From: an uncultured Candidatus Saccharibacteria bacterium
GTDB taxonomy: Bacteria > Patescibacteriota > Minisyncoccia > Phycocordibacterales > UBA2100
Direction: 5' to 3'
NCBI GenBank assembly: GCA_964462785.1
Contig: CAYWZA010000002.1
Coordinates: 1,061-65,060 of the forward strand
DNA length: 64,000 nucleotides
The position numbers were made by a program, and so were the translations under genes. Within the stretch, counting starts at the first letter, position 1; each line of letters begins with the position of its first letter. Shown here one piece after another: positions 10,489 to 42,285 of the stretch. A model generated the notes under the pieces. That model searched no databases. It had not been told where the DNA came from and saw nothing but the letters and a program-made list of their open reading frames with translations.

Positions 10489-11940
10489 ATGAATGTCTCT
10501 TTTACGGGCTGGCGAACACAGCTCATTGTAGCCATCTCCTCACTTTTTATTCTATGTATTGTTGGAATGAGCACGCCGGCACATGCGCAGCAGGTGGATG
10601 CTGGGGCTAATGCGCAGTGTCAAGCTTCGTGGACCGGATATTACAGTGCGTGTATGGCGAGGCCGGGTGCAAGTGCTGCCGCATGTCAGCAAGAAGCTAA
10701 CGGGAAAAACCTAGCCACAGCATGCAGTGGAAAGTGTAGCGGTCTATGTAATTTCCCCATGGGAGGCGGAGCAATTGCAAATGTCTGTGGAGGGTTGAAG
10801 TGTGGTGACCAGCCCGAGGGGGCATCCGATGCGGGGGCACAAAAAGCCATGGAAATGGCGAAGCAGCTCATGGACGCCCTTAAAAGCAAATCTGGTGGGG
10901 GAGGGGGTGGCGCAGGAGGTGAAACACCGCCGTTTGAAAATACTCCTCCGCCTCCTCCTGATGCCGCAAACTTCAATACCAATAGCGCAACAAGCACGTT
11001 CGGGAGCATTTTTAATACGGGGACGAATAGCACCGCGAGCTTTACCCAAACCGCCGCGCAGCGTATTACCAACGCGGCTGCGGACATCTTCTCATCCATT
11101 GTGGGTGGTGCAGCCAGCGAGCAAGCGAATAATGCAAACAACACAGACGCGTCCGCCCTCAAAGGTTCACAACCCGTGGTCGGGAGCACGCAAGCAGAAC
11201 GCAACAAAAACAGCAAACGAGATCCAAAGGATGACATCATCACGCGGGGAAAAGATGACGCTGTTGCAATGAATCTCACATCGTTTTTCGATAGATTTTT
11301 CGGTCGGGATGAGCAGATGAATAATGGCGTATCATTTTTCGGGCGCCTGTGCACAGCACGACCATGGCAAGCGTCTCTAGTTGCGCGGGTACTTTCTGAA
11401 AACTTCTTTGATTCATTGTGTGCACGGCAGGGTTTTGCACTCGAGAATGGTCGCTCAGATGTTTTCAATGCACGTTTTGGCAGCGCCCTTGGCGGTGCTG
11501 AGCTTACGTGCCCGCATAAAGCGAAAATTGGAGACACGGTGAACATTGCATGGAACTGTGGCGCAACGCAGAGTGTTGGTCTTGGTTTTGATACGGGCGG
11601 GAGCCCGTCCGGCAGTGTTGCGCTGCAGCCAGAAGACACCGCAGAATACCAATTGCGTTGTGGGAATGGTGGTCGCGCCCGATGTCTCATTGAGATTGAA
11701 CGACCGCGTGCAGAAATTACCGCCTATCCAGCACTGGTGCGCCTTGGTGCGCGCACTGAAATTTTCTGGACGAGTGAGCACGTCGCCTCATGTGTCATCG
11801 AGGGCCCTGGGCTCAAAGAGCTAGGTGTTCGCGGCGCAGCGACTACTCCAGTTATTCTCACCGGCGTTACCTATACTATTGTGTGTCACGATGAGGCAGG
11901 CAGGGAAGCGCGAGACAGTGTGACCGTTGAAGCGAATTAA
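10489..11940 (+). CDS. Secreted paralog-family protein P1 (483 aa): signal peptide, Cys-rich N-terminal module, Gly-rich motif, C-terminal twin beta-domain
   Basis: Signal peptide ends ...TPAHA. The N-terminal motif is CQASWTGYYSAC and the Gly run is GGGGGGAGGETPP. The GRLCTARPW...FFDSLC motif is shared with P2. The C-terminal twin domain aligns with the C-termini of the 476-, 819- and 2785-aa proteins. Confidence 0.7.
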   Translation: MNVSFTGWRTQLIVAISSLFILCIVGMSTPAHAQQVDAGANAQCQASWTGYYSACMARPGASAAACQQEANGKNLATACSGKCSGLCNFPMGGGAIANVCGGLKCGDQPEGASDAGAQKAMEMAKQLMDALKSKSGGGGGGAGGETPPFENTPPPPPDAANFNTNSATSTFGSIFNTGTNSTASFTQTAAQRITNAAADIFSSIVGGAASEQANNANNTDASALKGSQPVVGSTQAERNKNSKRDPKDDIITRGKDDAVAMNLTSFFDRFFGRDEQMNNGVSFFGRLCTARPWQASLVARVLSENFFDSLCARQGFALENGRSDVFNARFGSALGGAELTCPHKAKIGDTVNIAWNCGATQSVGLGFDTGGSPSGSVALQPEDTAEYQLRCGNGGRARCLIEIERPRAEITAYPALVRLGARTEIFWTSEHVASCVIEGPGLKELGVRGAATTPVILTGVTYTIVCHDEAGREARDSVTVEAN

Positions 11941-11948
11941 TAGCCGGT

Positions 11949-13379
11949 ATGTACGCAATGCGAATACCACTCAGCATTCTACTCAGCGTGATTGTTGCGG
12001 GAGCTTTCGCTGTGCATCATGCAGCCGCGCAAGAGACCGCGGGACAGGTGGATAGCTCGAATAAAATTTGCGCCAGCTGGTGGAAGCAGTGTGAGGGGAA
12101 ACCTTGTGCATCAAACCCGCCCGCATGCTCTCAGCAAATAACAGGGGGTTCCGCATCCGGTCATTGCAAAGGACCATTATGCAATGCGGAATCATACACC
12201 GACGCACAAGGTGATACGAAGTCAATCCAAGATGCCATGGGCTTCTTTCAGCAGGCGATGGGCATGATTCAGGGTCTTTTGGGTAAGGGAGGGGGCGCGG
12301 GCGCAGGTGGTGGCGAGGTTCCGCCACCGACGGGCAGCTCAGGATCACTTCCCAACGTGGCTCCTTCACCGGCAGATTTCTTTTCGGGCGCGTCAGGGAG
12401 TGCATCCACTAATCAGAACACTGATACAGAAACGCAAAAAGCCGCTGAAGAACCAAGTGCGACTTTTTTAAACGCAGTCTCCAAAGGATTCAACACTATC
12501 ACTGACAAAATTACTGAAGTGACGGTTGGTATTACCGAAAAGGCGCCTACGAAAACGGATGAAAGTACAAAGACAATAGACGCGACGCGCCCAGACACCG
12601 AGAAAGGCACCGGCACCAGCGCGACGACCCCCAAAAAAGAAAGCAGCGGCGTATCTGGTTTTTATAATGCAAATACATTTGGTCCGAATGCCGATCTTTC
12701 GCTTATCGGTCGTGTGTGCGAGACGCGCCCGTGGGCAGCAGGACTCATCGCACGTTTCGTCGCACCATCATTTTTTGACAGCATGTGTAGCAAAGGGGGA
12801 TACCACGTTGGACCGTATGATCCAGCGACCCAAGTGCCGGTGAATGCCACCGAGATGGTGCAGTCGGCGAGAGAGCGCGCCGCTGCAGAGCAGGCGCTTA
12901 ATGCGCGCGGAGAGATGCAAAAAGGTATTCGCTGCGCACCGGTCATTATCCGCCAAGGGGCGGAGGCGGCGCTGGAATTTTCCTGCGGCACTGGTGAGCG
13001 TTTACTGCGCGCTGTCGGCTTCAGAGCGGGGGTCAACGATAGTAGGGTGATTGTCCGCCCGGAGAAGACCACGGTATATGGCATACAGTGCTCGAATAAT
13101 TTTGAGGCAGCATGTGAAGTGAAGGTTGTGAACCCGCGCGTGGTGGTGTGGTCAGAACCAAAAACAGTTCGCCTCGGGTCGCGCGCGGTCATTCGCTGGA
13201 ATACGCAGGATGTTGAAAAAGGATCATGCACCGTGAAAGGAAATAGCTTCTCGCAAACAGGCGAGCGTGGTGGTGCATCCACCGTCCCCATCACTGGAGC
13301 CACTCCCTTCACTGCAACTTGCACCGCACTCGACGGGCAGCCGATCACCGAAACTCTCACTGTCGATTTGGCGCTATAG
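11949..13379 (+). CDS. Secreted paralog-family protein P2 (476 aa)
   Basis: It has a signal peptide, the motif CASWWKQCEGKPC, the segment MGMIQGLLGKGGGAGAGGG, the GRVCETRPW...FFDSMC motif and a C-terminal twin domain. The architecture is the same as P1. Confidence 0.7.
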   Translation: MYAMRIPLSILLSVIVAGAFAVHHAAAQETAGQVDSSNKICASWWKQCEGKPCASNPPACSQQITGGSASGHCKGPLCNAESYTDAQGDTKSIQDAMGFFQQAMGMIQGLLGKGGGAGAGGGEVPPPTGSSGSLPNVAPSPADFFSGASGSASTNQNTDTETQKAAEEPSATFLNAVSKGFNTITDKITEVTVGITEKAPTKTDESTKTIDATRPDTEKGTGTSATTPKKESSGVSGFYNANTFGPNADLSLIGRVCETRPWAAGLIARFVAPSFFDSMCSKGGYHVGPYDPATQVPVNATEMVQSARERAAAEQALNARGEMQKGIRCAPVIIRQGAEAALEFSCGTGERLLRAVGFRAGVNDSRVIVRPEKTTVYGIQCSNNFEAACEVKVVNPRVVVWSEPKTVRLGSRAVIRWNTQDVEKGSCTVKGNSFSQTGERGGASTVPITGATPFTATCTALDGQPITETLTVDLAL

Positions 13380-13584: not shown

Positions 13585-13705
13585 GTGGTGATGTTTTTGT
13601 TTGCCGGAGCGAAGCGCAGGCAAGGCAAAAACCGCGAGGCGGGTGAGCTGCGAATACTTGCAGCAGCGCAAGACCTTTTGAGCGATTTTGGAGTGCGCCA
13701 GCACG
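13585..13705 (+). repeat. tRNA-linked structured repeat element, copy E1 (degenerate, downstream of tRNA-Lys)
   Basis: The core gatgtttttgtttgccggagcgaagcgcaggcaaggcaaaaaccgcgag is about 94% identical to the core downstream of tRNA-Arg-TCT at 42107. A second hairpin (gcgattttg...caaaatcgc) follows. Confidence 0.6.
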
Positions 13706-21768: not shown

Positions 21769-21793
21769 AAAAACCCTTTATACACAGGGTTTT
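21769..21793 (+). terminator. Putative weak terminator after P4
   Basis: The stem aaaccc pairs with gggttt and is followed by a T. Confidence 0.4.
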
Positions 21794-21969
21794 AGAGCTT
21801 GTTGAAAAACCCGGGTTCCCTAGCCGAGCGGTGCGGTTTCCGTCGCGAGACACTTCGGCGGAGGGCGAAATGTGCTGGTGGCACATTGAGACCGAGCCGA
21901 ATGTGTCGCAGCAGGAAACCGTACCGCGCAGGCAGGCAGGGAGGGGTTTTGAGACATGCTCTGGCCCCA

Positions 21970-21998
21970 TTGATTTTTCACGATACTTGGTGTATAAT
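21970..21998 (+). promoter_or_regulatory. Sigma70-type promoter (TTGATT, 17-bp spacer, TATAAT), copy 1 of a duplicated promoter
   Basis: The promoter region gccccattgatttttcacgatacttggtgtataatta shares about 40 bp of identity with 25583-25620 (2 mismatches). Confidence 0.65.
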
Positions 21999-22046
21999 TA
22001 AAACAGGCTGCGAGGGGACGCAGCGAATTTTGGAAAGGGAAAAAAG

Positions 22047-22367
22047 ATGAAAACCTTTGGTTTTATCGCGGCACTTCTGCTCGGGCTGGGCACCGCTCAG
22101 GCTTCCGCTGAAGAATCCACGTTTGCAAATCTGACCGCGGGCGACCGCGTCTTGATCGGCGACTGGATGCCGAAGCAGATCAACGAGGAGGAGCTCAACG
22201 CACTCTGGACTGAGCCTGCTGAGCTGCCAACAGCGAACACGGAAGATGAGGAGAAATCCTCCCTCGACCGATTCGAGTTTTGCGGCGAGGTATGCCGCAC
22301 CGCCTTTGCTGGCGAAGAAAATTCGGCAGCAAAAAAGTTCAGGTTCACACCGGCGTCTGCGCTTTAA
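22047..22367 (+). CDS. Small secreted protein (106 aa, signal peptide MKTFGFIAALLLGLGTAQASA)
   Basis: The signal peptide is clear and the mature protein is acidic with 2 Cys. It sits downstream of duplicated promoter copy 1. Confidence 0.55.
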   Translation: MKTFGFIAALLLGLGTAQASAEESTFANLTAGDRVLIGDWMPKQINEEELNALWTEPAELPTANTEDEEKSSLDRFEFCGEVCRTAFAGEENSAAKKFRFTPASAL

Positions 22368-22535
22368 AACAGCGCAGCACAAAGTCAATCCCCCGAAATC
22401 AGCCAAAATATGGCGGGTTTCGGGGGATTTTTTAATGGCACACACTATCCCCACCTTTCAATTACACAGCGCCGCAGAGAGGCGCATAGTTATTACCAGA
22501 ACAAAGGAAGACAGAAGTATACAGGGAGGACCTTC

Positions 22536-25493
22536 ATGCGCATTGTTATCGCATGCATACTCGCGTTTGTCGTTGGGTCTTCCAGCGCAAACGCAGCGAT
22601 AAGCGAGGATGTACAACAGTTCATTCTCGATCATCTCAAGCTCGCCGTTCCTATTGAGGAGGCGCCGCAACCACCAGTATCGTTACGCGAGAAAGCGAAA
22701 ACGATCGCTGATGATTTGCAAAAAATATTCGAGTGCGAACGTCGTGGGTGTCTTGGGAAAGCCATCACCTATGGCGGAGAAAAGAATTCCATCCCCGAAC
22801 AGTACAAAGAATTGTTTGCACAGAAATTACAGCTCACGCCGCGCGATAAGGGCGGTGCTTCAGAGCCTGACGGTCGTGCCGTCCCCGGCATCATCATTGC
22901 TTTTATTGGCGCCTGTACGTGGGACGCCGCGGATTGTGACGGTGTGTACATAAATTCTGCACACCGCAACAAAAGTGGTGTCGGCAGTCGCCGGCACACG
23001 AATGATTTTGCAACGCGCGCTTTTGATCTGCTTGGATTCAAAGATATTGATCATCAGATCCGCTTCCTTACACGCATGGTGCTGGTGATAGAAGAGATGG
23101 GACTCGAGCCGAATCTTGGTCTCGGTCTTTCCACCGGCGAGGATGAAGAGGGTAGGGCAATTGCATATCAAGTAACACACATCGACGTGAATGGGCATGA
23201 GGTATCGCGCAAGAGTCGCTGCAAAACAATCTGTAGCAAATGCTCGAAAGTAAAGGGTAAGAGAAAATGCACCTGCAAAAGGCAATGCACGTCACGCGAA
23301 GGATCACATACATGGGATTATGGTCCGCGCACGGCACTGCAGATCATGTTGCAGGAAAAAATAGCAGCCGGACGACTTCCTGTGCAGTTTGCAGACAGCG
23401 TGCTCGTCACTCGCACACTCACCAGTAAATCTCTCGAGCATGAAGAGTCGAAAGATGCGCTGGCAGATGCTCAAGCCACGTCGCCGGTTTCAAGCCAAGG
23501 TAAGACACCGGCACAGCTGAAATACAATCTATGGGGCATCGAGTTTAAAAACTGGAGCCCTGGTCTTGATACGGTATATGGTCGGCAACTCTGTAAAAAG
23601 GGTGGACCGGTGCCGAATAAAGAAAACGTATTTTTCTGCGCATTCGATAATCCGATTGATGCGATGACTGCCTATTTTCTGAAAATCGATGCGTATTGTC
23701 GCAGTGGCATTTGTACGCCGCTCACGATAGCACGCGATTGGGTAGGGATGGGCGACATGGATGCCTATGGCAAAAATGCAGCGATCATCATCAAAGTAGG
23801 ACCGACAGAAGATATAGACAATCTGATAAAGCGGGTGCTTTTGATGCAGGCGCAGGCATGTCTTGAGCAAGGTTTCTGCGTATATTCCGAAGGGAAGCCG
23901 AAGGTGGTGGAACATTTGATCACGGCGTTTCCGTTTTCGCGCAACGAAATTTTTGCCGCTATTATTCGCGCACATTCCGAAAAGGTAGCAAATGAGTGGT
24001 TTGCGAGTACGGTGCCGCCGGTTGGGTTATTTGCCCCCGAGGAGCCGACACTTGCACCCATGACCCCGCTTACTTACAACGCACACTATGAGCCCGACGG
24101 GCGTTTAGTGGTTCCAGGAGTGCGCGCAGATTACAGCCTCTATAAACAAGGGGAGGCAAAATCACAGAAAGACACACTGACCATCATTCATGGCGATGTG
24201 TCGTTCAATTGCAAAGAGATTCAATCGCACTATCACGCATGCATCTCTCGTAATGGTGTGTTCAAGCAATTCCGTCCGTTCAGCGCGCGAGCGCCGCACG
24301 CGGCATACATGAACAGCTATACGACAGGTATCGTACTTCCCGGCATCGATAATTTGCCGCCGGCGCACAGTGCACTGCTGCCACCGACATTAGAACAGCT
24401 TGAAACACTCGCTCGGGTTTTGTTTGCGCGCGATGTTGCCGAAGGTCGACGAATTCCTTTTGCACGTCACCCCAATACCGAGCAGGGCAAAGGGCATAAG
24501 TGCTCCTGCGAAGCCGGCACGCCGGAAAGCGACGTATGGCTCGAGCAGCGCATACAGCAGCTGCACACTGAAAACAATACAAACTTAGAACTTCGCAAAG
24601 AAACACTGCTCAACTTGAGGGGTTCTACGGGTGGCATTGTCACCCGCAGCACATCTCAATTGCTGCAAAGCGTGGACGGCGGTGTGTTGGTGACTGATCC
24701 GCGAGGGTTGGTGCCAGGCGCACAGGCATTCTATCCGGCGGAGGAAATATCTCCGCCAGTTCTTGCTACTATTGCAGTGGTAAATGTTGCGCGACCTGCT
24801 TTATACGGGATCGACGCAACACTACTGCGCGATCCGACGTTTCGCTATCTGGTGGTGCATGAGGCGCATAGCACAGCCACAGAGGCGAGTATGCTGCGCG
24901 CGCTCGACACTGGCGTCTATGAACCAAATATTGATTGCGCACGGCTCTTTAGCGGATGCGCCATGTTTGGCTATCATGCGTTTTTGCCAAAGAAAGGCAG
25001 ACGCATACTGTGGATGGCACCTCGCGGCGCACGTGTAAACGGGATGCAACCTCCGGGGAGCATACCGCGCATGAACGGTGTCGCCGAAAACGCAGCGAAC
25101 ACCAATGCGCTTCATGTAGTACGCGAGGGCGATTCGTCAGAGCCGCTTACCGCGACTCAACAAAGCACGCTTAAGGCACTGAGTGAAGCATTTGCAATCG
25201 AGCCGTCGCACATCATTGGGCATGGCGAAGCACAACCAACAGGTGCCGAGGGGAGAGTGGATGGTATTGTTGCCGCGCGCTCCGTGCGCGGCGCCATAGC
25301 ACCCGACGCCGCTCCCTTAAACGCAGAGTCTGCGTTTAAGACATATCTCGCGCATCGTGCCAACATCTTACGCAATGCTCGTACGCCGCCGCTGCAGGAA
25401 AAAGTGCATGCGCTTGCGCGCGCATATAGCGGCACTATCAACGAAGATGCGGCGCTCGATCTGCTCGTCCCCAAACGACAGCCCGAGCACTGA
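22536..25493 (+). CDS. Secreted peptidoglycan hydrolase-like protein (about 985 aa) with a GH73 glucosaminidase-like central region and an Amidase_2 (AmpD/T7-lysozyme-like) C-terminal domain
   Basis: The start follows the RBS agggagg. The signal peptide ends ...SSSANA. The GH73-like motifs are YNLWGIEF and FCAFDNPIDAMTAYFLKI. The Amidase_2-like motifs are YLVVHEAHSTA and SHIIGHGEAQPTGAEGRVDG, matching the I.GH.E..P....DPG pattern. The ORF track extends upstream to 22410. Confidence 0.55.
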   Translation: MRIVIACILAFVVGSSSANAAISEDVQQFILDHLKLAVPIEEAPQPPVSLREKAKTIADDLQKIFECERRGCLGKAITYGGEKNSIPEQYKELFAQKLQLTPRDKGGASEPDGRAVPGIIIAFIGACTWDAADCDGVYINSAHRNKSGVGSRRHTNDFATRAFDLLGFKDIDHQIRFLTRMVLVIEEMGLEPNLGLGLSTGEDEEGRAIAYQVTHIDVNGHEVSRKSRCKTICSKCSKVKGKRKCTCKRQCTSREGSHTWDYGPRTALQIMLQEKIAAGRLPVQFADSVLVTRTLTSKSLEHEESKDALADAQATSPVSSQGKTPAQLKYNLWGIEFKNWSPGLDTVYGRQLCKKGGPVPNKENVFFCAFDNPIDAMTAYFLKIDAYCRSGICTPLTIARDWVGMGDMDAYGKNAAIIIKVGPTEDIDNLIKRVLLMQAQACLEQGFCVYSEGKPKVVEHLITAFPFSRNEIFAAIIRAHSEKVANEWFASTVPPVGLFAPEEPTLAPMTPLTYNAHYEPDGRLVVPGVRADYSLYKQGEAKSQKDTLTIIHGDVSFNCKEIQSHYHACISRNGVFKQFRPFSARAPHAAYMNSYTTGIVLPGIDNLPPAHSALLPPTLEQLETLARVLFARDVAEGRRIPFARHPNTEQGKGHKCSCEAGTPESDVWLEQRIQQLHTENNTNLELRKETLLNLRGSTGGIVTRSTSQLLQSVDGGVLVTDPRGLVPGAQAFYPAEEISPPVLATIAVVNVARPALYGIDATLLRDPTFRYLVVHEAHSTATEASMLRALDTGVYEPNIDCARLFSGCAMFGYHAFLPKKGRRILWMAPRGARVNGMQPPGSIPRMNGVAENAANTNALHVVREGDSSEPLTATQQSTLKALSEAFAIEPSHIIGHGEAQPTGAEGRVDGIVAARSVRGAIAPDAAPLNAESAFKTYLAHRANILRNARTPPLQEKVHALARAYSGTINEDAALDLLVPKRQPEH

Positions 25494-25504
25494 CGACACA
25501 ATAG

Positions 25505-25545
25505 AATGCGCCCTCGCTCCGCGAGGGCGCATTTTCGGTTTTGCC
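25505..25545 (+). terminator. Rho-independent terminator after the hydrolase gene
   Basis: The hairpin is aatgcgccctcgc, loop tccg, then gcgagggcgcatt, followed by ttcggtttt. Confidence 0.75.
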
Positions 25546-25589
25546 ACTAACGCAGAGAATTCCTTTTATCAACAGGGTTTTTAGCCCCA

Positions 25590-25618
25590 TTGATTTTTCA
25601 CGATGTTTGGGGTATAAT
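25590..25618 (+). promoter_or_regulatory. Sigma70-type promoter, copy 2 of the duplicated promoter
   Basis: The promoter region gccccattgatttttcacgatgtttggggtataatta has TTGATT, a 17-bp spacer and TATAAT. Confidence 0.65.
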
Positions 25619-25667
25619 TAACATGGTGCCCTGGAAAGGAATGGGGCGGAAACAGAAGGTAAAACAG

Positions 25668-25982
25668 ATGAGAGCAATGTTGGTAGCCGTCATCACGCTA
25701 TGGAGCACAGCAAGTGCTTATGCGTGGCAGGAGGAAAACCCAGGGAGCAGGGTTGAAATTCGACAGGAAACAGGGGTCTTTTGTGTGGACGAGCAGTCTG
25801 CACAAGAGTATCTCAAACAAAACATGCTCCTGAAATCGGCAGCAATGAGGGACGACCTCCTTGCAACAAAGTGCTGGGTGGACGCTCGCACGGTCGCTGG
25901 TGATTTTTCTTCGGGAGCGCGCATAGTTCAAGTGCTCATTCTCGAAGATGGAAGACAGCTCACACGGTTTCTCGTTTGGTGA
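25668..25982 (+). CDS. Small secreted protein (about 104 aa, signal peptide MRAMLVAVITLWSTASAYA)
   Basis: The ATG at 25668 follows the RBS gaaggt. The track ORF 25590-25982 would begin inside the promoter. The mature protein has 2 Cys. Confidence 0.5.
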   Translation: MRAMLVAVITLWSTASAYAWQEENPGSRVEIRQETGVFCVDEQSAQEYLKQNMLLKSAAMRDDLLATKCWVDARTVAGDFSSGARIVQVLILEDGRQLTRFLVW

Positions 25983-26089
25983 ACTGGTGAGTGAGAAGCG
26001 CTGACCCCGGTCTATGACCGGGGTCTTATGTTTCCACATATGCGCACACAATAAAGCAGAAATGCAGTAAAACATGCCATAATTTCTCC

Positions 26090-29000
26090 ATGGTACGCGT
26101 TTTATGCGGGTTAATCTTTGTATGCACACTCGCATCTTTTGTCCACACAACCTCAGCACAAGCTCAAAGTAAAAATTGTACGCCCGGGGGTACCTGCAGC
26201 ACCGAATTGGAAGGGGATACTACCACCACCGTTAGTGCCGGAGAAGACAAGGGTACCGCCACACAAGATACGCAACAGACAGGAAGCTGCACAAAAGAGC
26301 TGCAAGCGGCAGGAAAATGTAAGCCGGAGTGTCCAAAAGTAAACTATTCGAGTGTAACCGGTGGGATTGTCACCTGCTACAGCGAGGTGAGCGACAGCTG
26401 CTATATGAATGATAACGCCGGCACTGCTGAGTGTTCGAGTGACGAGATGCAAAAAATTATTGACGGGAAAACTCCTCCGCAAACTACCGATTACGTAGGT
26501 ACGCCGGGGTCACAGAGTGGCTCCTCTAGTGGGGTTCAAAGTCCTGAGATCGAAGCACAGAAGGCATTGCGCGACGCGGAATATAAGTTGGCACAGGCAC
26601 AAAAAAATTATGATCAGTGCTGGTGGGGTTGTGCTGATGAAAAAGCGGCGCTTGAGCAAGCTCAACAAACACGCGATGCAGTGCAAGATTCTGCAGATTA
26701 TCTTAACGAAATTGCCAATAAACCACCCGGTACCTACATACCCGAAACCCCATTGAATACAGCGTTGCAAAATAGTTGGGCTAACAATGTATTGCAACAG
26801 CCCGCACCGGCAGTAACAGAGAGTCGCTTGGGCGATTTCGGTAGCGGATTACGCGAAGCGCTCAGTCCTGATTCTTTTTCGAACTCAGCCTTTCGAGATC
26901 AGTGGAACGGGTGGAATCCAAACGTAACACCGAGCGACGGGGCGTTCAATCGTTTTGATTTTGGAAATAATAGCGGATTCAACTCATTTGGGCAGTCGGT
27001 CGGCAGTGATATTTCTGGAGGGCTGAGTGCTGGTCCGAGCTCATTCACTCCTTTTTCTTTTGACAGTGGCTTAACTGGGAGCCCGTACGATGGGTCCGCC
27101 CCGTTCGAGCCATTCGACTATGAAACTTCCCCCATCGGACCGGGTTGGGGGAATGACGACCTCGGAAAACTATCAAATTTCGATTTCTCGAATGCGCCGC
27201 TGCAGCCAAGCACTCTGCAAGATCTATCGAATTTAAATAACGGGTTATTACCCACACTCCCCAGTGTTTCAGATCCACTTGGTGCCCTGAAAAGTTTGGA
27301 TTCGGAGCAACTTCCTACGGTGTCAGATGCTCAATCACCGAATGATTTTCTTGGACTCAAGGCTATCGCAGAGCAACAACCGCCTGAAGGCAGCGGATTG
27401 AGTGCCGAGGATTTCAGCGAGCGCCTCGAAGTGTTTAAAAAAGGATTCGGCAATGTGGTGGACAGCCTCACTGAGGGGGTGCAGGGTATTTTTGCGGGAG
27501 ACATCAGCGCACCTGATTTTTGGGATAAAACACTTAAAAATATCGGCGTTGGTGTCAACGCTGGTTTGGGTGAAGGGGGAGTACGCCTCGGCGGCATCCT
27601 CGACTACTCTCCGCTAAGCGATGGCGGGCTATTGCCTGGTCTGCGGCAGACGGTCAAAGACGTGTTTGGGTGGGGAAGTGATGTCGCGACACCACCCGAG
27701 ATACCATCGGGGATACAAGGCGGCGGAGCGCTGACCGCAGGTGAGTCATATCGGCGAGAGCTCGATGCTGCGAAACAAGCATCCGCAGCTGCGGGCGAGC
27801 GCGCACGGCGAGCAGACGAAAACGCTCGCAGCACGGGATCCTATGATCCAGACAATGCCTTTGAAGTGGAAAGATACAATGCGGCGCAGGCAGAAATAAA
27901 AGCCGCACGTGAGGAGCAAGCAGCTGCGCAAGCGCGGCTTGCGGCAGCACAGGCGGATGTTGATCGTATCCGCGCGCGCGACAACCAAGTCCCCGGGCAG
28001 GGGAGCATTGCGAATACGGGCGTGAATGAAGCTAAGGTGGTGGCAGATTCGGGCGTACGCGATACACAGGGAACAGAAAGTCTTGCGTACCAGCGTGCAG
28101 CAAAAGACTACCAGGCATTATTACCCCTCGCGGCTCCGGTTACCAACGCTCTGCAAGACGCGAATAGCGCCTGGATAAAACGAGCTGAAGAAATAGGGCT
28201 CATTGAAAATATCGGAACAGCTGATAAGCCGCAATATCGAATACGCCCTGAACTCACGGAAACGCAACGGATCAATAAAATGGGAATGCTGCGCGACGAG
28301 ACCGATCGTCTCAATTTGGCAAAAGATCAATACAAGACATATGCAGAGACGCTCAAAGATGCTCGCGACAAAACTCTGTATGCGGCAGGTGCAGATCCGT
28401 TGTTTTCGGACGCCGCGCGGGCAAATGCACTTTTGGGCGATATGCGTCTAAGACCTGAACAAGAAATACCCATTGATGAATATTGGCAAGACAAAAATGG
28501 ACTGGCAATGGGAGTGGGCGCAGCGGGAGCTATGGGAAGATATGTTCTTAGAATGGATCCTTATCAACCAGTCATCAACTCAAATGCGCAAGAAATTGCA
28601 TTTAATGAACTGCAGGCAAAACAAGAAGCACTCATTCAATCATTAGCGGGATGTACCGACTGTCAAAATGTTATTGAAGCGATTGAACGCAACAATGAAC
28701 TTGCAAAACAATTTGAAAGCGGACAGTTTGAGGGAGCGCAAAAAGACTATCTCATAAAACTTTCAGACCAAAACCCTATTCAAAGGGATCTTCCAGTAGG
28801 GGATTTAACCACACAAGAATTAGCTTCGCGGGCAAGCAATGAATGGGGAAGGCTGCTCCGCGGTACGCAAGAATATCTTGGCGCGGAAATGGGTAAGGCG
28901 TGGGAGGAGGGAGAATATGGCAAAGCAACAGCTCTTTTCTTGCTACAAACCCCAGGGCAGATCACACAAGGCTTGCTCGGGGCTGAGTCGCTCCAAGGAC

Positions 29001-32000
29001 TTGGGCAAACACTATATGGTGCTGACACCAGTATTCTCGGGCTGACAATTCCCGGAGGGGAAGCGGGCTATAATATTGTAAGAAATGTCACCGATGCAGG
29101 GACTTTATCTGTAGTTACGGGTGCCTACTTATTTCCAGGACCGGCAGGGTTAGCACTAAGGGGAGCTGATAGCCTTGCCGCCAGCGCGGGGCGCTTTGCG
29201 GGTAACATTGCGGACGTCAGATCCGCCTTGAATGTTGCCGATAGTGGAGCGGGCTTTGGGTATGATTTTTCAGGGCGACCATCGGCGGATGCAATCATTC
29301 GTGATGGGGGCTTAGCAGTGGTACCCGAGAACAACATATCTACTGCGCCCGCGCGTGATGGTGGCTCAAGTCCTCCGCCTCAATTAACCTCGAACGCACC
29401 ATCTCCCACATCACGCTCCGTCACTCAACCCCCTCCATTGCGTAATGAATTCTCACCCACAGGTGGTGCGCGCACCAGTGGCAATGCGGTGCAAGGAGCG
29501 CCCCCCTCCGCCTCATTTATTCCAGGGACTTCGCCGCTCGGCGATCTTGCAGACGCAATGCGTCGAGGATCACCGACACTGATCACCCCGTCTAATTTCG
29601 GTCGGACCGGCGACGACGTTCTCTTCGGTGGTGCGGCGAATGACAATCTAATGGGCTCTACTCCTGCCGGAGGTCCGCCTTTGGAAAATAGGTGGTTTGC
29701 ATTTGCGCGCGCTCCCGAGGATGGAGGGGGAGCGGGGCGTGGAGGCACGATCATACCGTTTACTCCACGAGCGTCCGAGCTCCCAAGTGTCGGCGGTGGG
29801 GACACTATTGTATTTAGAGAAGGTTTTGGCAGTGATGCACCACCAGCTCGCGTGGACGCAGGTGCTATTGATGACGCGACACTGCGTGAGCTCGAAAACA
29901 TTCTCGCGAACGAGCCGGATCAATTTGTGTTTCGTACTGTTGATGATGCCGTCACACCCGATGGCGTGACAGATCTGTTGCAGCGCCGATACGGAGGAGC
30001 ATCTCTAGAGGAAATCGCAAAAGCACGGGAGGCAATACGGCTGAATGAAGCTGCCCGTCGTCTTGATTCTCAAAACACTTCGCAGGCAACCGCGGATGCA
30101 AGCACTTTGCGTGCCCGCGCTGCACAAATCGCAACCGACATCAATGATCCTGCTTTGGGTAGATTGGCTGAATCGTGGGGAGGGGAAAGAGCGCCGAGCG
30201 CAGCAGGTGCTGGCGTTCCAGATAGTGTCGTTGCAGCAGAGGCGGCACAGCCAAAACCCGCTTCTGGAATTTTATCCCCCATTACCAACACTCCATTCGC
30301 AAGAGCGTTGTGCGTTATAGGTGGCTTGTTCTGTGGGTCGCAAGCTGTTCCTGGGCAGTTGGTAAACGATCTCAATCCGTTGGGTATAAGTTCGGCAAAT
30401 GCAAAGCCGGCAGCGCTTCCGGTCCAATTAGTGCATGACGGTGTCTTGGGGGTTGAGACAGGTGCGGCGTCGACATACAACCCGAATGTGGTCGGGTGGA
30501 GAACGGGTGGGGAAAAACTTGCAACAGGCGGAAGATACAATCCCGATGAATTTGAAGCTGCGCTACAGACAGGATTGGCGGAACAGTATCGAATGGGGCA
30601 CAGCAGATACCCCAATGTCGGGTACGCGCTTGTGGAAGCGGAAGGCAGAAAACTTATTGTACGCATTAATGACAACGGTCCATTAGTTCGCAATCGCATC
30701 ATCGATCTCAACGAAGCCTCGATGCGCTATTTAAGTGGTGGTAGATATGGCAACAATTCGGGAGTATTGCAAAATACACGAGTAACTGTTTTGGCAGGAC
30801 AAAACTATACGCCGGGACCGCTTGCGAATGATGCCACTCTTCTCGCTCGGGCTGAAATACCGCCCGCAAGTCCAACAGCACCTCGCATAGAAACAGGATC
30901 ACTGAGCGCCCCTAAGTCAGCGGTGGATTCCGCAGTTGATGAAATTACAAAAAGGGCGGAGCAGGTGGGTGACGCTGTTAGAAAAGCAGGCGATGATCTT
31001 GCGAAAGCACTCGATATACGCCCCGGCACTCCGGAAACTGACTTCATGAAAAACGTGCAAGGGAAATTAGTGGAAACACCACCACCAGCGGCATTGATCA
31101 AAAATTTTGACGTTAACAATCACACTTCCGCAGAAGCAAGAGCGGTCCAGGAGGCGCTTAGAGCCCAGGGGTATGACACAGCTGTTGATGGAGTTATCGG
31201 TCCGCAGACAATACGCGCGCTCGAAAGCGCGAGAGTGGATATTGATGGTGCGTTGCGCAATATTTTCACAGACCAAGCTGACTATCAGCAAGCGCGCAGG
31301 ATATTCCTCGAAAGATTTAAAGGTATGCCCAAAAATTTTGAGCAACCACTGCTCACCATGTTGCGAAAGATGCAAGAGGCTGGTCAGGCGCTGCCCGGCG
31401 ATAATCAGCCGATCGTGCTGGTTAACGTAAGCGGAAGCAGAGAGGGGGTTGCCATTATGTCGCTCACACACAACGACGGGCTCCTTCTTTGGGAGGGAAG
31501 TCCGACACTCAGAGTCGGCGTAGCAGCTAATGGCCCGATTGATTGGGCAAAAGATTTTATTGGCTCGAACAAAACGATAGTGGGCTCAGTAGCAAAAATT
31601 ATTGGTGGGGAACATCGTGGAGACAAGGCTTGGGCAGTGGGCGCGCTTTATCGGGAGTCAATAGATGGGGGATTACAGAACGAGAGAGTCACATGGTATC
31701 ACGGAGTTTCTAATCGCGCCGTTACACCAGGCCAGCGCCCCAACGCAACATCGGGGTGTGTTTCAATGTGTTCTCTAGTGATGCAAAATTTGTATGATCA
31801 AGTGCTGGGAACCCCTGGTGTGGGGGAACCGGGGTGGCAACTCGCAGGTAGAGATGGGGCAGTGCGGGGAGCAAATAAGATTAACGGGGGATATACGTAT
31901 GAATTTTCTGAGCAAGTGACAAACAGCGTTGGTGTTGCAGAAAATAAGGCAATTGCCCAGAAAGAGCCGGTGATGGTTGCTGATGCTGCGCCAGGTGGTG

Positions 32001-34447
32001 GTGCGACTCAGGGTCTTACTCCTGAAACCGCCGAAATCGCTCGGGTGTATGAGATATCCGGAGAGACTGGAACGATACCAAAGGGAGCGATCCTTGAGGT
32101 GAGCCCGGATGGAAAAACATTAACCTATGGCGAGACCGTGTACCAAGCAAAACAGATTTCTGGAGAACCGATTCCGCTAGAACCCGCATCAGCACTTTCA
32201 ATTATAGATTTGAAACCTTTACAAGTGGACTGGCTAGACAGAATACAGATTGAAGGCGTTCCGAAGCTGGGACTAGAACTTCAGGTGTGGCGACCAGATT
32301 TCAACGCCGCGGTTGAAAATGTGATGCGGGGGGTCAATGATGGCATCTCTGAATTCAAACAAATCGTCAGTGGCGTACCCGGCGACATATCAAAATGGGT
32401 TTCTAGAAACAGCTTTAATGTCAGTGTTAGTCTTGAACCGAATCCGGCATGGCTTAAAGCGGTTGGAGATAGTGCTAATACTGCTGCAGAGCGAATAACA
32501 ATAATGTATCGGGACGCATATGCTGCTTTGGACGACTTCCCGTCAGCACCTCCCACGCCAGGTGACCCATTATTCGGTCTATTCGCCTTGGGTAGCACGC
32601 GACGCACATCAAATGCACCATCCCAAACACCAATACCCGAGGGGGTAGACACTCCGCCCGCAGGACTTGGGTTGCAGGCACCACCTTCAAAAATAGCAGG
32701 CACGGGTGATACACAGAAATTTGTACCTACCTCGCGCAACATTAATCCAGCACCGGTACGCGCGATTGATGATATTCCCGCACCGACAGATGGCGTAACT
32801 CCGCCATTGTCACGGACTCAACCTGATGTTACTGAGGGTATGAGTAAATCTGGTCGCACGGGAGGAGCTTCGATCACTGATGACACTGCCACAAACGGGA
32901 CAGTGCCCGCGAAACAAGACACTCCGCCCGCAGGACTTGGGTTGCAGGCACCACCTTCAAAAATAGCAGGCACGGGTGATACACAGAAATTTGTACCTAC
33001 CTCGCGCAACATTAATCCAGCACCGGTACGCGCGATTGATGATATTCCCGCACCGACAGATGGCGTAACTCCGCCATTGTCACGGACTCAACCAGTTGGT
33101 GATTCCGCTGCGAACATGACAGAACTCATGAGCCGAAGCGCACAGCAAAGTGCGCCAGCCACAGCCGCTTCAGTGGGTGCCATGAAGAAAGTTTCAAATA
33201 CAATCCGCGCTTGTGTAAATGGGGGATGGACGACGGCGAAGTGTGCGGGTGTTGCAATAGTCGCAACGTGGGCTGGGACATGCGCACTAACGGGGTACGA
33301 CGGTGTTCCATGCAATTGGCAAGGGACAAGGACAGGCACATGCATATCGGACGGAGGGAGGAAATGTGTTACAGGAGCATCCCCAGGAGCGGATGCAACA
33401 AAAGATGGTACAGAAAAAACACCACCTGCGGATACAGATAAAGACAGAACTGGCGCAGGCGCACCTCCACCAGATGATACAGGCGCAGGGAGGAGACCGC
33501 CTCCAAGTGCCCAGACGCCACCCAATAGTGGCACTGCAGCACCTACACGCACCACACAAGGAGGATCGGGTGGAAGTGGTCTTGGTGGATTGATGGGAAT
33601 GCTCGGGCAATTTATGCAGATGCTTACCGGGCAGGGAGCGCAAGAGCCAGATGCATCACCAACAGGATCGCCTAAGGCACCGACAACAGTGACTCTCTCC
33701 TGCGATCCGTCAATTATTCTCAATCGTGGCACGACAACGATTCGCTGGGCGTGCTCAGGTAATGAGCGCAGTACGGGAGTGAATTTCGATACACGCGGCG
33801 CGCCGTCGGGATCGGTGGAGCGGGGTATTGATACCATCGAGCAGAGCATGCAATTTGGCGTTTCGTGTGGCGGCAGCGCGCCGCGCAGCTGCTCAGTGCG
33901 CGTACTGCACCCGCGCATCACACTCACCGCATCTCCGGGCGAAGTGGAAAGCGGCACGCACGCACGACTCAATTGGGCTGGAGTGGGCGTGCGATCATGC
34001 GGAGTGCTCGCGCCTACCTCAAATGAAATTGCGCGCGGGACGGCGACAGGATTTGTCGACACGCCCGATCTCACACGCTCACAGCGCTTTGCGGTGGTCT
34101 GCTCTACTGATGCAGGCAAGCCTGTGCATGAATTCATTACCGTGCGCGTCGCAGGCGATGACACGGATCCGGAAGTAGTGGAGATTCCTGAAGCGTATAT
34201 GCGCACCACGCCTTCCTCCGCGGCGTCAGCGCTGCCCACCGCAGTGAGCGATCTGCCCTCAGAAGAGGGGAGTAGTTTCTTCGATGGTTCTGCAAATACT
34301 CCATCGCCCAGCGCACCACAAGAGCCGATCACACCGCCCCCCGGCACGTTCACCGCAACTGATGCTCAAGGCAACGCCGTCTTCCTCTGTGATCCTGAAG
34401 CAGGTATTGATACCTATATTTCGTGCATATCCGGAGGAAGGTGGTAG
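26090..34447 (+). CDS. Giant secreted multidomain protein P5 (2785 aa) with coiled-coil regions, a PG_binding_1 domain, a YkuD-like L,D-transpeptidase fold, an RlpA-like double-psi beta-barrel, an internal exact repeat and the family C-terminal twin beta-domain
   Basis: Signal peptide is MVRVLCGLIFVCTLASFVHTTSAQA. The RlpA/DPBB-like segment is TGGRYNPDEFEAA...LIVRINDNGPLVRNRIIDLNEASMRYL. The PG_binding_1 segment is TSAEARAVQEALRAQGYDTAVDGVIGPQTIRALE. The YkuD-like segment is WYHGVSNRAVTPGQRPNATSGCVSMCSLVMQNLYD. The Gly/Met motif is GGSGGSGLGGLMGMLGQFMQMLTGQG. The C-terminal 200 aa align with P1, P2 and P4. Confidence 0.8.
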   Translation: MVRVLCGLIFVCTLASFVHTTSAQAQSKNCTPGGTCSTELEGDTTTTVSAGEDKGTATQDTQQTGSCTKELQAAGKCKPECPKVNYSSVTGGIVTCYSEVSDSCYMNDNAGTAECSSDEMQKIIDGKTPPQTTDYVGTPGSQSGSSSGVQSPEIEAQKALRDAEYKLAQAQKNYDQCWWGCADEKAALEQAQQTRDAVQDSADYLNEIANKPPGTYIPETPLNTALQNSWANNVLQQPAPAVTESRLGDFGSGLREALSPDSFSNSAFRDQWNGWNPNVTPSDGAFNRFDFGNNSGFNSFGQSVGSDISGGLSAGPSSFTPFSFDSGLTGSPYDGSAPFEPFDYETSPIGPGWGNDDLGKLSNFDFSNAPLQPSTLQDLSNLNNGLLPTLPSVSDPLGALKSLDSEQLPTVSDAQSPNDFLGLKAIAEQQPPEGSGLSAEDFSERLEVFKKGFGNVVDSLTEGVQGIFAGDISAPDFWDKTLKNIGVGVNAGLGEGGVRLGGILDYSPLSDGGLLPGLRQTVKDVFGWGSDVATPPEIPSGIQGGGALTAGESYRRELDAAKQASAAAGERARRADENARSTGSYDPDNAFEVERYNAAQAEIKAAREEQAAAQARLAAAQADVDRIRARDNQVPGQGSIANTGVNEAKVVADSGVRDTQGTESLAYQRAAKDYQALLPLAAPVTNALQDANSAWIKRAEEIGLIENIGTADKPQYRIRPELTETQRINKMGMLRDETDRLNLAKDQYKTYAETLKDARDKTLYAAGADPLFSDAARANALLGDMRLRPEQEIPIDEYWQDKNGLAMGVGAAGAMGRYVLRMDPYQPVINSNAQEIAFNELQAKQEALIQSLAGCTDCQNVIEAIERNNELAKQFESGQFEGAQKDYLIKLSDQNPIQRDLPVGDLTTQELASRASNEWGRLLRGTQEYLGAEMGKAWEEGEYGKATALFLLQTPGQITQGLLGAESLQGLGQTLYGADTSILGLTIPGGEAGYNIVRNVTDAGTLSVVTGAYLFPGPAGLALRGADSLAASAGRFAGNIADVRSALNVADSGAGFGYDFSGRPSADAIIRDGGLAVVPENNISTAPARDGGSSPPPQLTSNAPSPTSRSVTQPPPLRNEFSPTGGARTSGNAVQGAPPSASFIPGTSPLGDLADAMRRGSPTLITPSNFGRTGDDVLFGGAANDNLMGSTPAGGPPLENRWFAFARAPEDGGGAGRGGTIIPFTPRASELPSVGGGDTIVFREGFGSDAPPARVDAGAIDDATLRELENILANEPDQFVFRTVDDAVTPDGVTDLLQRRYGGASLEEIAKAREAIRLNEAARRLDSQNTSQATADASTLRARAAQIATDINDPALGRLAESWGGERAPSAAGAGVPDSVVAAEAAQPKPASGILSPITNTPFARALCVIGGLFCGSQAVPGQLVNDLNPLGISSANAKPAALPVQLVHDGVLGVETGAASTYNPNVVGWRTGGEKLATGGRYNPDEFEAALQTGLAEQYRMGHSRYPNVGYALVEAEGRKLIVRINDNGPLVRNRIIDLNEASMRYLSGGRYGNNSGVLQNTRVTVLAGQNYTPGPLANDATLLARAEIPPASPTAPRIETGSLSAPKSAVDSAVDEITKRAEQVGDAVRKAGDDLAKALDIRPGTPETDFMKNVQGKLVETPPPAALIKNFDVNNHTSAEARAVQEALRAQGYDTAVDGVIGPQTIRALESARVDIDGALRNIFTDQADYQQARRIFLERFKGMPKNFEQPLLTMLRKMQEAGQALPGDNQPIVLVNVSGSREGVAIMSLTHNDGLLLWEGSPTLRVGVAANGPIDWAKDFIGSNKTIVGSVAKIIGGEHRGDKAWAVGALYRESIDGGLQNERVTWYHGVSNRAVTPGQRPNATSGCVSMCSLVMQNLYDQVLGTPGVGEPGWQLAGRDGAVRGANKINGGYTYEFSEQVTNSVGVAENKAIAQKEPVMVADAAPGGGATQGLTPETAEIARVYEISGETGTIPKGAILEVSPDGKTLTYGETVYQAKQISGEPIPLEPASALSIIDLKPLQVDWLDRIQIEGVPKLGLELQVWRPDFNAAVENVMRGVNDGISEFKQIVSGVPGDISKWVSRNSFNVSVSLEPNPAWLKAVGDSANTAAERITIMYRDAYAALDDFPSAPPTPGDPLFGLFALGSTRRTSNAPSQTPIPEGVDTPPAGLGLQAPPSKIAGTGDTQKFVPTSRNINPAPVRAIDDIPAPTDGVTPPLSRTQPDVTEGMSKSGRTGGASITDDTATNGTVPAKQDTPPAGLGLQAPPSKIAGTGDTQKFVPTSRNINPAPVRAIDDIPAPTDGVTPPLSRTQPVGDSAANMTELMSRSAQQSAPATAASVGAMKKVSNTIRACVNGGWTTAKCAGVAIVATWAGTCALTGYDGVPCNWQGTRTGTCISDGGRKCVTGASPGADATKDGTEKTPPADTDKDRTGAGAPPPDDTGAGRRPPPSAQTPPNSGTAAPTRTTQGGSGGSGLGGLMGMLGQFMQMLTGQGAQEPDASPTGSPKAPTTVTLSCDPSIILNRGTTTIRWACSGNERSTGVNFDTRGAPSGSVERGIDTIEQSMQFGVSCGGSAPRSCSVRVLHPRITLTASPGEVESGTHARLNWAGVGVRSCGVLAPTSNEIARGTATGFVDTPDLTRSQRFAVVCSTDAGKPVHEFITVRVAGDDTDPEVVEIPEAYMRTTPSSAASALPTAVSDLPSEEGSSFFDGSANTPSPSAPQEPITPPPGTFTATDAQGNAVFLCDPEAGIDTYISCISGGRW
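32648..33093 (+). repeat. Exact 176-bp direct repeat (period 270 bp) inside the giant gene
   Basis: The segment 32648-32823 matches 32918-33093 with no visible mismatch. Each encodes DTPPAGLGLQAPPSKIAGTGDTQKFVPTSRNINPAPVRAIDDIPAPTDGVTPPLSRTQP. The ORF track shows identical antisense ORFs over both copies. Confidence 0.85.
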
Positions 34448-34563: not shown

Positions 34564-35040
34564 TCAAAATCCAAAAAACTCTGCGAGGGTGTATATAAAT
34601 GACTGATGCAATTCTATTTCCGGCACGCGCTCTGCGAGAAATGCGCGCACCATATTCGGATCAACATCAGTAAGGGGAATGATCAGATCGGGATTCATAA
34701 TACGGGGCGTGTCAATTAATAGTGTCGGCTCGTCATCCTCGCTCACCCAGAATGCGCGCATTTCTTCATAGGGGTAGAACGTATCTCCCACAGCAAGCCC
34801 GCGCTCACCGAGCGCGAATTCAACAACGGCGGGCGGGCGCTTTGCCAGCATGCCGAGCGTGACCCCTCCGAGCACGATAAGCAGTGCGAAGAGCACATTA
34901 TTCAGCAGCACCGCAGTCAGTGCGGAGGACATGATGATAATACCGAGCGCCCAGTACCAATCACTGCCGCGCTCTATGTGTTGGTGTTCTTGACCAGACC
35001 ATGTGATCGTTTCGTTCATGGAGTGATGGTATTCCCGCAC
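34564..35040 (-). CDS. Hypothetical membrane protein (158 aa)
   Basis: There are two hydrophobic helices near the N-terminus and no recognisable family. The ORF overlaps the pilin gene's stop by 25 nt, so the true start may be the internal MNETITW. Confidence 0.4.
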   Translation of the reverse strand: MREYHHSMNETITWSGQEHQHIERGSDWYWALGIIIMSSALTAVLLNNVLFALLIVLGGVTLGMLAKRPPAVVEFALGERGLAVGDTFYPYEEMRAFWVSEDDEPTLLIDTPRIMNPDLIIPLTDVDPNMVRAFLAERVPEIELHQSFIYTLAEFFGF

Positions 35041-35432
35041 CCTTCCGAATATCCTTTGATGGTATCCGTCTCAAGACAAAATGAAATAGTAAATGAAGAT
35101 CCGTTTGCGGGTGTTACATACGTATAATCCTGCACGGGGGAAGCCGGATCATGCGGGACGGCATTAATGACTCCGGCATTTTCGAGCACCGTTGAAAGAC
35201 CGTCTTCGCCAGTGATATCAATCGGGGTGGTCGTGATGGGGAAAACACCGCCGCTTGTCACGGCATACGATGCAAGTGATTTTGCAATCGTGTTTACATC
35301 AGATATGCGTCGCGCGTCGCGTCCGCGTTTTTGTACCGCGCCAAAAGATGCCATGGCTACGGCGCTCAAAAGCCCGATGATGGCGATCACCACTAAAAGC
35401 TCAATCATCGTAAATCCACGTCGGGGTTCCAT
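35016..35432 (-). CDS. Type IV pilin / pseudopilin (prepilin with N-terminal methylation motif)
   Basis: The N-terminus MEPRRGFTMIELLVVIAIIGLLSAVA is the class III signal, with Gly-Phe-Thr-Met-Ile-Glu and a hydrophobic helix. A C-terminal Cys pair is present. Confidence 0.8.
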   Translation of the reverse strand: MEPRRGFTMIELLVVIAIIGLLSAVAMASFGAVQKRGRDARRISDVNTIAKSLASYAVTSGGVFPITTTPIDITGEDGLSTVLENAGVINAVPHDPASPVQDYTYVTPANGSSFTISFCLETDTIKGYSEGCGNTITP

Positions 35433-42095: not shown

Positions 42096-42285
42096 CCGGG
42101 CGCAGCGATGTTTTTGTTTGCCGACGCGAAGCGAGGCAAGGCAAAAACCGCGAGCCGGGGTCGCGAGATTTTTCCGTCAGGAAAAATACTCGTGACCACA
42201 AAAAGCGCTTAGTGACCGTCAGGTTGATTCCTACCGAGGGCACACACAAACATCCCGCCTGCGCGTGATGTTTGTGTGTGCCAGC
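42096..42285 (+). repeat. tRNA-linked structured repeat element, copy E3, with a degenerate duplicate of the tRNA-Arg-TCT 3' end and a terminal hairpin
   Basis: The core gcagcgatgtttttgtttgccgacgcgaagcgaggcaaggcaaaaaccgcgagccggggtcgcga is followed by hairpin 2 (gatttttcc, gtca, ggaaaaatac), then tcgtgacc, then ggttgattcctaccgagggcaca at 42222-42244. The matching tRNA 3' end is ggttcgattcctcgcgagggcaca. The perfect inverted repeat cacacacaaacatc...gatgtttgtgtgtg closes the element. Confidence 0.7.

Follow-up and report, generated by a model that had tools for sequence, protein, structure and literature searches.

Several described systems place small secreted proteins next to enzymes that degrade the bacterial cell wall. 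In the Tae/Tai and Tse1/Tsi1 pairs of type VI secretion systems (T6SS), and in polymorphic toxin-immunity cassettes, small secreted-protein genes adjoin the gene of a wall-degrading enzyme, whose N-terminal part is conserved and whose C-terminal catalytic part varies. Ivy, MliC/PliC, PliG and IseA/YoeB are likewise small secreted proteins that are encoded near, or act on, peptidoglycan hydrolases; IseA of Bacillus subtilis is a secreted wall-hydrolase inhibitor in a single-membrane bacterium. The enzymes themselves include secreted multidomain autolysins and endolysins with several wall-cleaving modules (Amidase_2 plus a second wall-cleaving domain, as in phage M15/amidase combinations). Here we describe a locus with features of each, located in a 64-kb stretch of contig CAYWZA010000002.1 (positions 1,061 to 65,060; hereafter the window, in whose numbering coordinates are given unless a related locus is named). 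The gene for a secreted 985-amino acid (aa) multidomain peptidoglycan hydrolase (22536-25493, + strand) is flanked by two small secreted-protein genes, small1 (22047-22367, + strand) and small2 (25668-25982, + strand), and each of these is preceded by a copy of what appears to be one promoter.

The two copies form a 38-nucleotide (nt) repeat on the + strand, at 21964-22001 (P1) and 25584-25621 (P2), in which 35 of 38 positions, including all of the first 21, are identical; the near-identical promoter that an earlier reading of the bare sequence (the original prediction) had claimed for two sites is therefore present at both. A search for the 21-mer with up to three mismatches returned exactly two sites in 64 kb, and none of 100 shuffled sequences contained any match. 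Both copies have the make-up of sigma-70/sigma-A promoters, with a -35 TTGATT, a 17-nt spacer and a -10 TATAAT (-35 at 21970-21975 and -10 at 21993-21998 in P1; 25590-25595 and 25613-25618 in P2), and lie at the right distance from a Shine-Dalgarno sequence and start codon, the -10 ending 48-49 nt from the ATG. They are the top two sigma-70-type matches within 19-36 kb (10/12 each). Across a library of genome contigs, the 20-nt promoter core gave five single, unrelated matches, consistent with chance.

Similarity between the copies ends directly 3' of the -10, before the coding sequence. In the upstream direction it continues for a further ∼22 nt (CCTTT(T)AT..ACAGGGTTTT) when an insert of 168-169 nt in copy 1 is taken out. 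The duplicated segment has as its left part a terminator-like hairpin (21770-21793, + strand, -8.7 kcal/mol) that follows the gene for an 819-aa secreted protein; its counterpart, the upstream extension of copy 2 (25563-25583, + strand), is a degenerate copy of the hairpin segment at 21775-21793. The duplication thus spans ∼60 nt and is wholly intergenic, and does not belong to a larger duplicated segment that includes coding sequence, an outcome that would have undone the promoter claim.

To place these elements in context, we used loci from relatives (written L0xx), retrieved via homologues of the hydrolase N-terminal domain; together with the window they comprise 152,787 nt (153 kb). A promoter of the type CA-TTGAyT-TTTCAyG-N9-10-TATAAT is found upstream of a small1-like gene in L007, L013 and L009, upstream of the small2 homologue in L013, and at the corresponding position in L007; the L009 lineage has a second promoter of another type, TTGACA-17-TAACAT. 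In an alignment of seven sequences from three lineages, TTG, TTTTCA and TATAAT are invariant and the other spacer positions vary, a pattern of constant hexamers and partly drifting spacer shared with canonical sigma-70/sigma-A promoters and with duplicated promoters homogenised by gene conversion. A sequence-only model built from the seven copies recovered (E<=10) only these sites in the 153 kb. This model and the conservation are the strongest evidence for a functional promoter and for a common regulatory design of the two small genes. Because the promoter type is kept at both positions in syntenic relatives, and nowhere else in the 153 kb, the twin arrangement is ancestral to this Parcubacteria lineage and probably a truly shared regulatory design, which favours the co-regulation originally proposed. 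In L007, an insertion sequence-type gene (IS200/IS605 Y1 transposase, 2413-2971) lies directly 3' of the second promoter, parting it from the expected small2 site.

Within the window, P1 and P2 share 37 of 44 aligned positions, and P2 has more in common with the P1-type promoter of L013 (35/44) than with the L013 element at the matching position, L013 P2 (31/44). This and the degenerate hairpin copy are most simply accounted for by an overwriting of P2 with P1 sequence in this lineage, and we propose that the near-identity of the two copies stems from that event. Chance convergence of two generic near-consensus promoters, heading small open reading frames (ORFs) functionally unlinked to each other or to the hydrolase, is very improbable. 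The shared hexamers are the universal consensus, and promoter-like matches in the region number 13 against a shuffled expectation of 12.9, as such convergence would have it; however, identity extends beyond the hexamers to 6 nt 5' of the -35 and 14 of 17 spacer positions, similarity reaches upstream into the hairpin segment, and TTTCAyG is retained in relatives at exactly these two gene positions.

The genes behind the two promoters are real, as judged by Shine-Dalgarno sequences, Sec-type signal peptides, and codon usage that is of coding type in frame 0 only (0.166 for small1 and 0.117 for small2; reference mean 0.162, standard deviation 0.065), so the hydrolase is indeed flanked by small secreted-protein genes as first described. 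Small1 (106 aa; NCBI entry HYT30_01165) is acidic, has signal peptide MKTFGFIAALLLGLGTAQA and contains the motif FCGEVCR (CxxxC), and small2 (104 aa; HYT30_01155) carries signal peptide MRAMLVAVITLWSTASAYA and is predicted to adopt a small alpha+beta fold. The mature proteins are alike in size (87 and 85 aa), isoelectric point (4.3 and 4.8) and cysteine content (two each) yet do not resemble each other in sequence (BLASTP E=14), which agrees with their initial description as unrelated proteins of similar size, charge and cysteine count. We rejected the possibility that they are diverged paralogues, as similarity is undetectable and the window holds no further paralogues. Both families are extremely narrow, with three small1 family members, and five for the small proteins together, in 5.8 billion proteins. 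Positional counterparts of small1 with the CxxxC motif occur in L007, L013 and L009, and the motif is the only conserved feature of these variants. Neither protein matched a Pfam, NCBIfam or PHROGs family, PDB sequence searches with either returned nothing useful, and the small2 model (the only one of the two used in fold comparison) matched nothing among solved folds.

Each gene is followed by an intrinsic terminator on the + strand: 22387-22429 after small1 (a 14+4-bp stem followed by UUUUUU; -30.1 kcal/mol, z -6.2), 25503-25540 after the hydrolase gene (-26.9 kcal/mol, z -5.2, followed by a U-tract), and 26003-26025 after small2 (-21.4 kcal/mol; a hairpin is kept at this position in L013 and L009). 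Since strong terminators bound every gene, the locus would comprise three transcription units rather than one operon, and with a -30.1 kcal/mol terminator between small1 and the hydrolase gene, P1 would not simply drive the latter.

The same DNA is present in a metagenome-assembled genome labelled ‘Parcubacteria group bacterium’, the source of both NCBI entries, whose contig JACOYQ010000011.1 (GCA_016181805.1) is 100% identical to window positions 12047-32367. Its annotation has small2 begin at 25623, where transcription is predicted to start (119 aa), and the hydrolase at 22410, inside the small1 terminator (1027 aa). Both gene calls are probably too long; we prefer starts at 25668 and 22536 because they better fit Shine-Dalgarno sequences, signal peptides and orthologues (22536 coincides with the point at which homologues begin), and the locus thereby corrects two likely over-long gene starts in public annotation. 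The window otherwise has ordinary chromosome content, including PolA, RuvA, a Mur ligase, PilB/PilM, tRNAs and aminoacyl-tRNA synthetases.

The explanation that we favour, to which we give about an even chance of being right, is that two paralogous strong promoters head two monocistronic small secreted genes within a conserved locus of large wall-active secreted proteins, and that the promoter copies have been locally homogenised. P1 and P2 would be paralogous copies of one strong housekeeping-type promoter, each heading a single-gene unit composed of a 42-43-nt leader with a 5' hairpin, a Shine-Dalgarno sequence, a ∼105-codon ORF with a Sec signal and a terminator. Unit 1 lies just before the hydrolase gene and unit 2 just before the gene for a giant DPBB/peptidoglycan-binding protein. 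In this lineage copy 2 would have been overwritten, whether by gene conversion or by a short duplication, with ∼60 nt from the region of copy 1, among them some of the terminator hairpin that precedes it. The small proteins would then be made in parallel, in large excess over the big wall-active proteins, whose genes appear to lie behind strong terminators with weaker-looking upstream elements of their own; they would most likely act extracellularly, as accessory partners of this wall-active/surface-protein locus and not as cognate amidase immunity.

Several points weigh against this account. Promoter strength, start sites and terminator efficiency have all been deduced from sequence, and the search for further promoter copies in this genome covers 64 kb only. 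The small1 variants are only marginally recognisable as homologues (BLASTP E 0.05; profile E 2.8e-3), and ‘accessory partner’ is a weak, default assignment for the small proteins. In addition, the layout of strong promoter, small gene, terminator and large wall-degrading enzyme would equally suit an inhibitor made in excess.

A GGGAGG Shine-Dalgarno sequence precedes the hydrolase gene, whose product starts with a signal peptide. The only Pfam family matched by this product is Amidase_2 (PF01510), at 37 bits for the full-length protein (cut-off 26; E 4.9e-9, two stretches); PHROG amidase and AmpD profiles match weakly. This bears out the original prediction of a secreted hydrolase with an Amidase_2 domain. 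A word-index search with the whole protein found no homologue, and relatives emerged only when 1.84 billion representative proteins were searched exhaustively with HMMER, which yielded 15, and when a profile of the N-terminal domain was used. The first amidase domain (∼aa 545-660, 24168-24515, + strand) accounts for 27.3 bits when aa 521-700 are scanned alone, and aligns weakly with T7 lysozyme in the same register (E 0.79); by eye, candidate zinc ligands are H552 (IIHGD), H645 (ARHPN) and C655/C657 (KCSC), together with Y566 (HYHACI) as a candidate for the GYH-type catalytic Tyr. The second, Amidase_2-like domain (aa 721-940, 24696-25355, + strand) forms the other stretch of the whole-protein match and is undetected when scanned alone; it would be amidase-like only transitively, through phmmer matches to the Amidase_2 regions of eight proteins (P0008-P0015; E 3.5e-5 to 8e-4 in the whole library), and its candidate ligand residues by eye are H775, H896 and E905/D909.

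The remaining domains are less readily classified. The N-terminal domain (aa 50-290, 22683-23405, + strand) constitutes the core that a tiny protein family conserves; it has five relatives at 41-57% identity, several of which have a different C-terminal domain that looks 3D/DPBB-like by eye. A weak signal makes a LAS/M15-like zinc-peptidase fold possible; the domain has no Pfam or NCBIfam match and no M15 profile match, its family profile retrieved no PDB sequence, and Foldseek comparison of its model with the PDB gave nothing significant. The middle domain (aa 312-456, 23469-23903, + strand) has two relatives, P0006 and P0007, the latter also with Amidase_2, and no Pfam match at E<=10. It corresponds to the region initially called GH73-like, a label that does not survive: Glucosaminidase (PF01832)/GH73 gave no match at E<=1 in the whole protein or at E<=10 with aa 301-520 alone, no PDB sequence matched, and only a loose ‘NLWGI...F.F..P.DA..AY’ resemblance can be seen by eye. 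No recognised wall-binding repeat was found in the hydrolase, and PDB sequence searches with the protein or its domains returned nothing useful.

Upstream of the hydrolase start, two short blocks, CACTATCC(C)CA and GCATAGT(T/A), are conserved in all lineages regardless of the preceding gene (window 22440-22500, L006 1035-1095, L007 770-790, L013 6940-6960), and could serve the hydrolase gene as an operator or as a weak promoter of its own. The first of the two looks like a DnaA box. A DnaA-box interpretation was also considered for TTATACACA/TTATCAACA, in hairpin loops upstream of both promoter copies, and was rejected because near-matches are not enriched in the window (17 vs 12.3 expected), which applies to the first block as well.

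Gene order is conserved among the relatives, with a ∼820-aa protein, the hydrolase N-domain, a small gene and the giant gene following one another in L008-L011 and L013/L007 (L007 is a strain of L013, 93% identical). In L009 (and likewise in L008, L010 and L011), an LTD protein, a Mur ligase (76% aa identity), RuvA (73%) and S20 lead into an 833-aa protein, a 71-aa small1-like protein, a 272-aa protein, a 444-aa hydrolase homologue, a ParE toxin-antitoxin pair, a 110-aa small gene and a giant gene of at least 3272 aa. The order in L013 is an 812-aa protein, a 262-aa protein, a 141-aa small1-like protein, a 480-aa hydrolase homologue, a 128-aa small2 homologue and the giant gene. The more distant L012 (11387-12340) encodes an N-domain homologue, P0003, in which the putative zinc-ligand residues are missing, followed by genes for a VanY (M15) carboxypeptidase and a PG_binding_1 protein. 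We rejected a scenario in which small1 and the hydrolase gene form a recent island with attL/attR ends, as the hydrolase homologue and the two promoter positions are found in the same location in relatives and no integrase is present.

The layout had suggested an effector-immunity or enzyme-inhibitor module, with periplasmic protection from the hydrolase. We consider it unlikely, on balance, that secreted small1 made in excess restrains the amidase/peptidase and/or small2 the giant DPBB protein, shielding the cell's own wall. Such a role would suit the position of each small gene directly before a large wall-active gene, with a stronger-looking promoter and a terminator that would lead to small-protein excess, and the recurrence in three lineages of a small1-like gene with the same promoter type in the cluster (immediately 5' of the hydrolase gene in L007, L013 and the window). 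The CxxxC cysteines, being all that small1 variants conserve, might, speculatively, cap the catalytic zinc, and secreted wall-hydrolase inhibitors such as IseA do exist in single-membrane bacteria. Yet the small genes do not covary with the enzyme, nor do they appear to be coupled to it in transcription. Between L007 and L013 the hydrolases are 93% identical and the small1 proteins only 32%, whereas small2 is kept (37-41% identical between the window and L013) although the C-terminal catalytic domains of the hydrolases differ; small2 is, moreover, always directly upstream of the giant gene. Besides the separate promoters and strong terminators, L009 has genes that intervene on both sides of the hydrolase homologue, the 272-aa gene after small1 and the ParE-type pair (11470-11981; same in L008, L010 and L011) before the small2-like gene, and the N-domain homologue in L012 has neither small gene beside it. 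No similarity to Ivy, MliC/PliC, PliG, IseA or T6SS immunity proteins was found in sequence for either small protein, or in fold for small2, the only one so compared. Periplasmic protection is also at odds with membership of the Parcubacteria/Patescibacteria, a group for which an outer membrane is proposed to be absent (PMC12102498); the source organism probably has no periplasm. The covariation and adjacency results thus argue against cognate immunity and leave room for a looser modulator role.

The small1 difference between L007 (431-753) and L013 (6479-6925) raises a further alternative. DNA identity in these strains falls sharply from ∼92% to ∼45% across a stretch that begins within the promoter, 3' of TTGATTTTTCA, and finishes where the terminator ends; the flanks are ∼93% identical. 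The drop reflects replacement of a cassette that left the enzyme untouched. Promoter, small secreted ORF and terminator might accordingly form an exchangeable cassette, with its conserved left end, GCCCA-TTGATTTTTCA, as crossover site, through which strains would exchange or duplicate small secreted proteins that are under diversifying selection, for example for host recognition or evasion; we find this rather improbable. The unit precedes the 272-aa gene in L009 but follows its homologue in L013, and the window lacks that gene; this variation would be in line with a mobile cassette, as would the copying of P1 sequence to the P2 position and the IS200/IS605 insertion right after P2 in L007. 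However, the locus contains no recombinase or integrase, homologous recombination between conserved flanks explains the replacement of a variable gene equally well, on the right the boundary coincides simply with conserved sequence 5' of the hydrolase gene, and only one swap pair has been observed. In its fuller form, to which we assign the same low probability, cassettes recombining at the promoter core would have fast-diversifying products that modulate the large wall-degrading proteins and the giant surface proteins in a strain-specific way, as inhibitors or as factors of host specificity. If true, this would be a diversification system for episymbiont weaponry acting on the walls of the cells themselves or of their hosts. 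Two homogenised promoters with separate small-gene units, as set out above, remain our preferred reading.

The giant gene downstream of small2 (26090-34447, + strand) encodes a secreted protein of 2785 aa with DPBB_1 and PG_binding_3 domains, and its position directly after small2 is conserved in L008-L011 and L013. An extended -10-like sequence, TGCCATAAT, in the region 26074-26092 ends 7 nt before the ATG, there is no Shine-Dalgarno sequence, and the same -10-like/ATG spacing recurs in L009 (12500-12525), which suggests that the giant protein is translated from a leaderless mRNA. Within the gene, a 182-nt segment is duplicated (32647-32828 and 32917-33098; 99% identity, 270 nt apart), giving a ∼90-aa repeat (DTPPAGLGLQAPPSKIAGTGDTQKF...). 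Beside its 3' end lies an ORF on the - strand (35016-35432) whose product is type IV pilin-like, with N-terminus ...GFTMIELLVVIAIIGLL; PilB (853-2571) and PilM (39367-40542) are also encoded in the window, in which no secretin was seen.

The insert in copy 1, between the terminator-like hairpin and P1, is a long imperfect hairpin of 169 nt (21794-21962, + strand; -98.5 kcal/mol, z -8.1). Folded as the - strand it reaches -80.8 kcal/mol, an energy gap that suggests G-U pairs and an RNA made from the + strand. The hairpin occurs once in the window, is absent from the relatives' loci and is lineage-specific; it could be a small RNA gene or an insert resembling a miniature inverted-repeat transposable element. 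Rfam searches, at gathering thresholds and at E<=10, returned no match for it or for the leaders of the small genes, and a PADLOC scan gave nothing meaningful.

Three further features of the window lie outside this locus. A ∼54-nt hairpin-forming repeat (93-96% identical) occurs at 13590-13643 and 42107-42159, 110-130 nt downstream of tRNA-Lys and tRNA-Arg(TCT), respectively. A partial copy of the tRNA-Arg 3' end at 42226-42246, 191 nt after the tRNA, is a possible scar of an integrated element. Finally, an isoleucyl-tRNA synthetase-like gene (59907-63320, 1137 aa) has a His_Phos_1 domain inserted at aa 492-672, which divides the class I synthetase catalytic domain into two stretches.

Parcubacteria are uncultivated episymbionts with minimal genomes, and the locus offers a concrete, conserved and testable arrangement for the control of enzymes that cut peptidoglycan, whether their own or that of a host; it also provides a rare instance of a promoter in this group that genome comparison is able to identify. 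Should the large proteins be modulated by the small ones, the latter would form a new class of hydrolase regulators; otherwise, the locus still defines two new amidase-attached domain families. New here is the combination of an Amidase_2 autolysin with two unclassified domain families and a conserved twin-promoter arrangement, none of which contradicts established biology.

Set against the systems with which we began, the locus departs from each in specific ways. In contrast to typical multidomain autolysins and endolysins, the hydrolase has two amidase-type domains in tandem, its N-terminal and middle domains belong to no Pfam family and have only about 10 and 2 relatives, respectively, in the 1.84 billion representative proteins, and its relatives keep the N-terminal domain and swap the C-terminal one. 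Unlike ordinary sigma-70/sigma-A promoters, P1 and P2 carry a CA before the -35 and TTTCAyG at the start of the spacer, restricted to two genes; these extra conserved positions hint at an added regulatory site, or at a terminator U-tract overlapping the -35. In contrast to T6SS effector-immunity pairs and polymorphic toxins, the small genes appear to be separate units that do not covary with the catalytic domains, match no immunity family, and are found in an organism that probably has no periplasm; in the window only type IV pilus genes, and none of such a secretion system, were seen.

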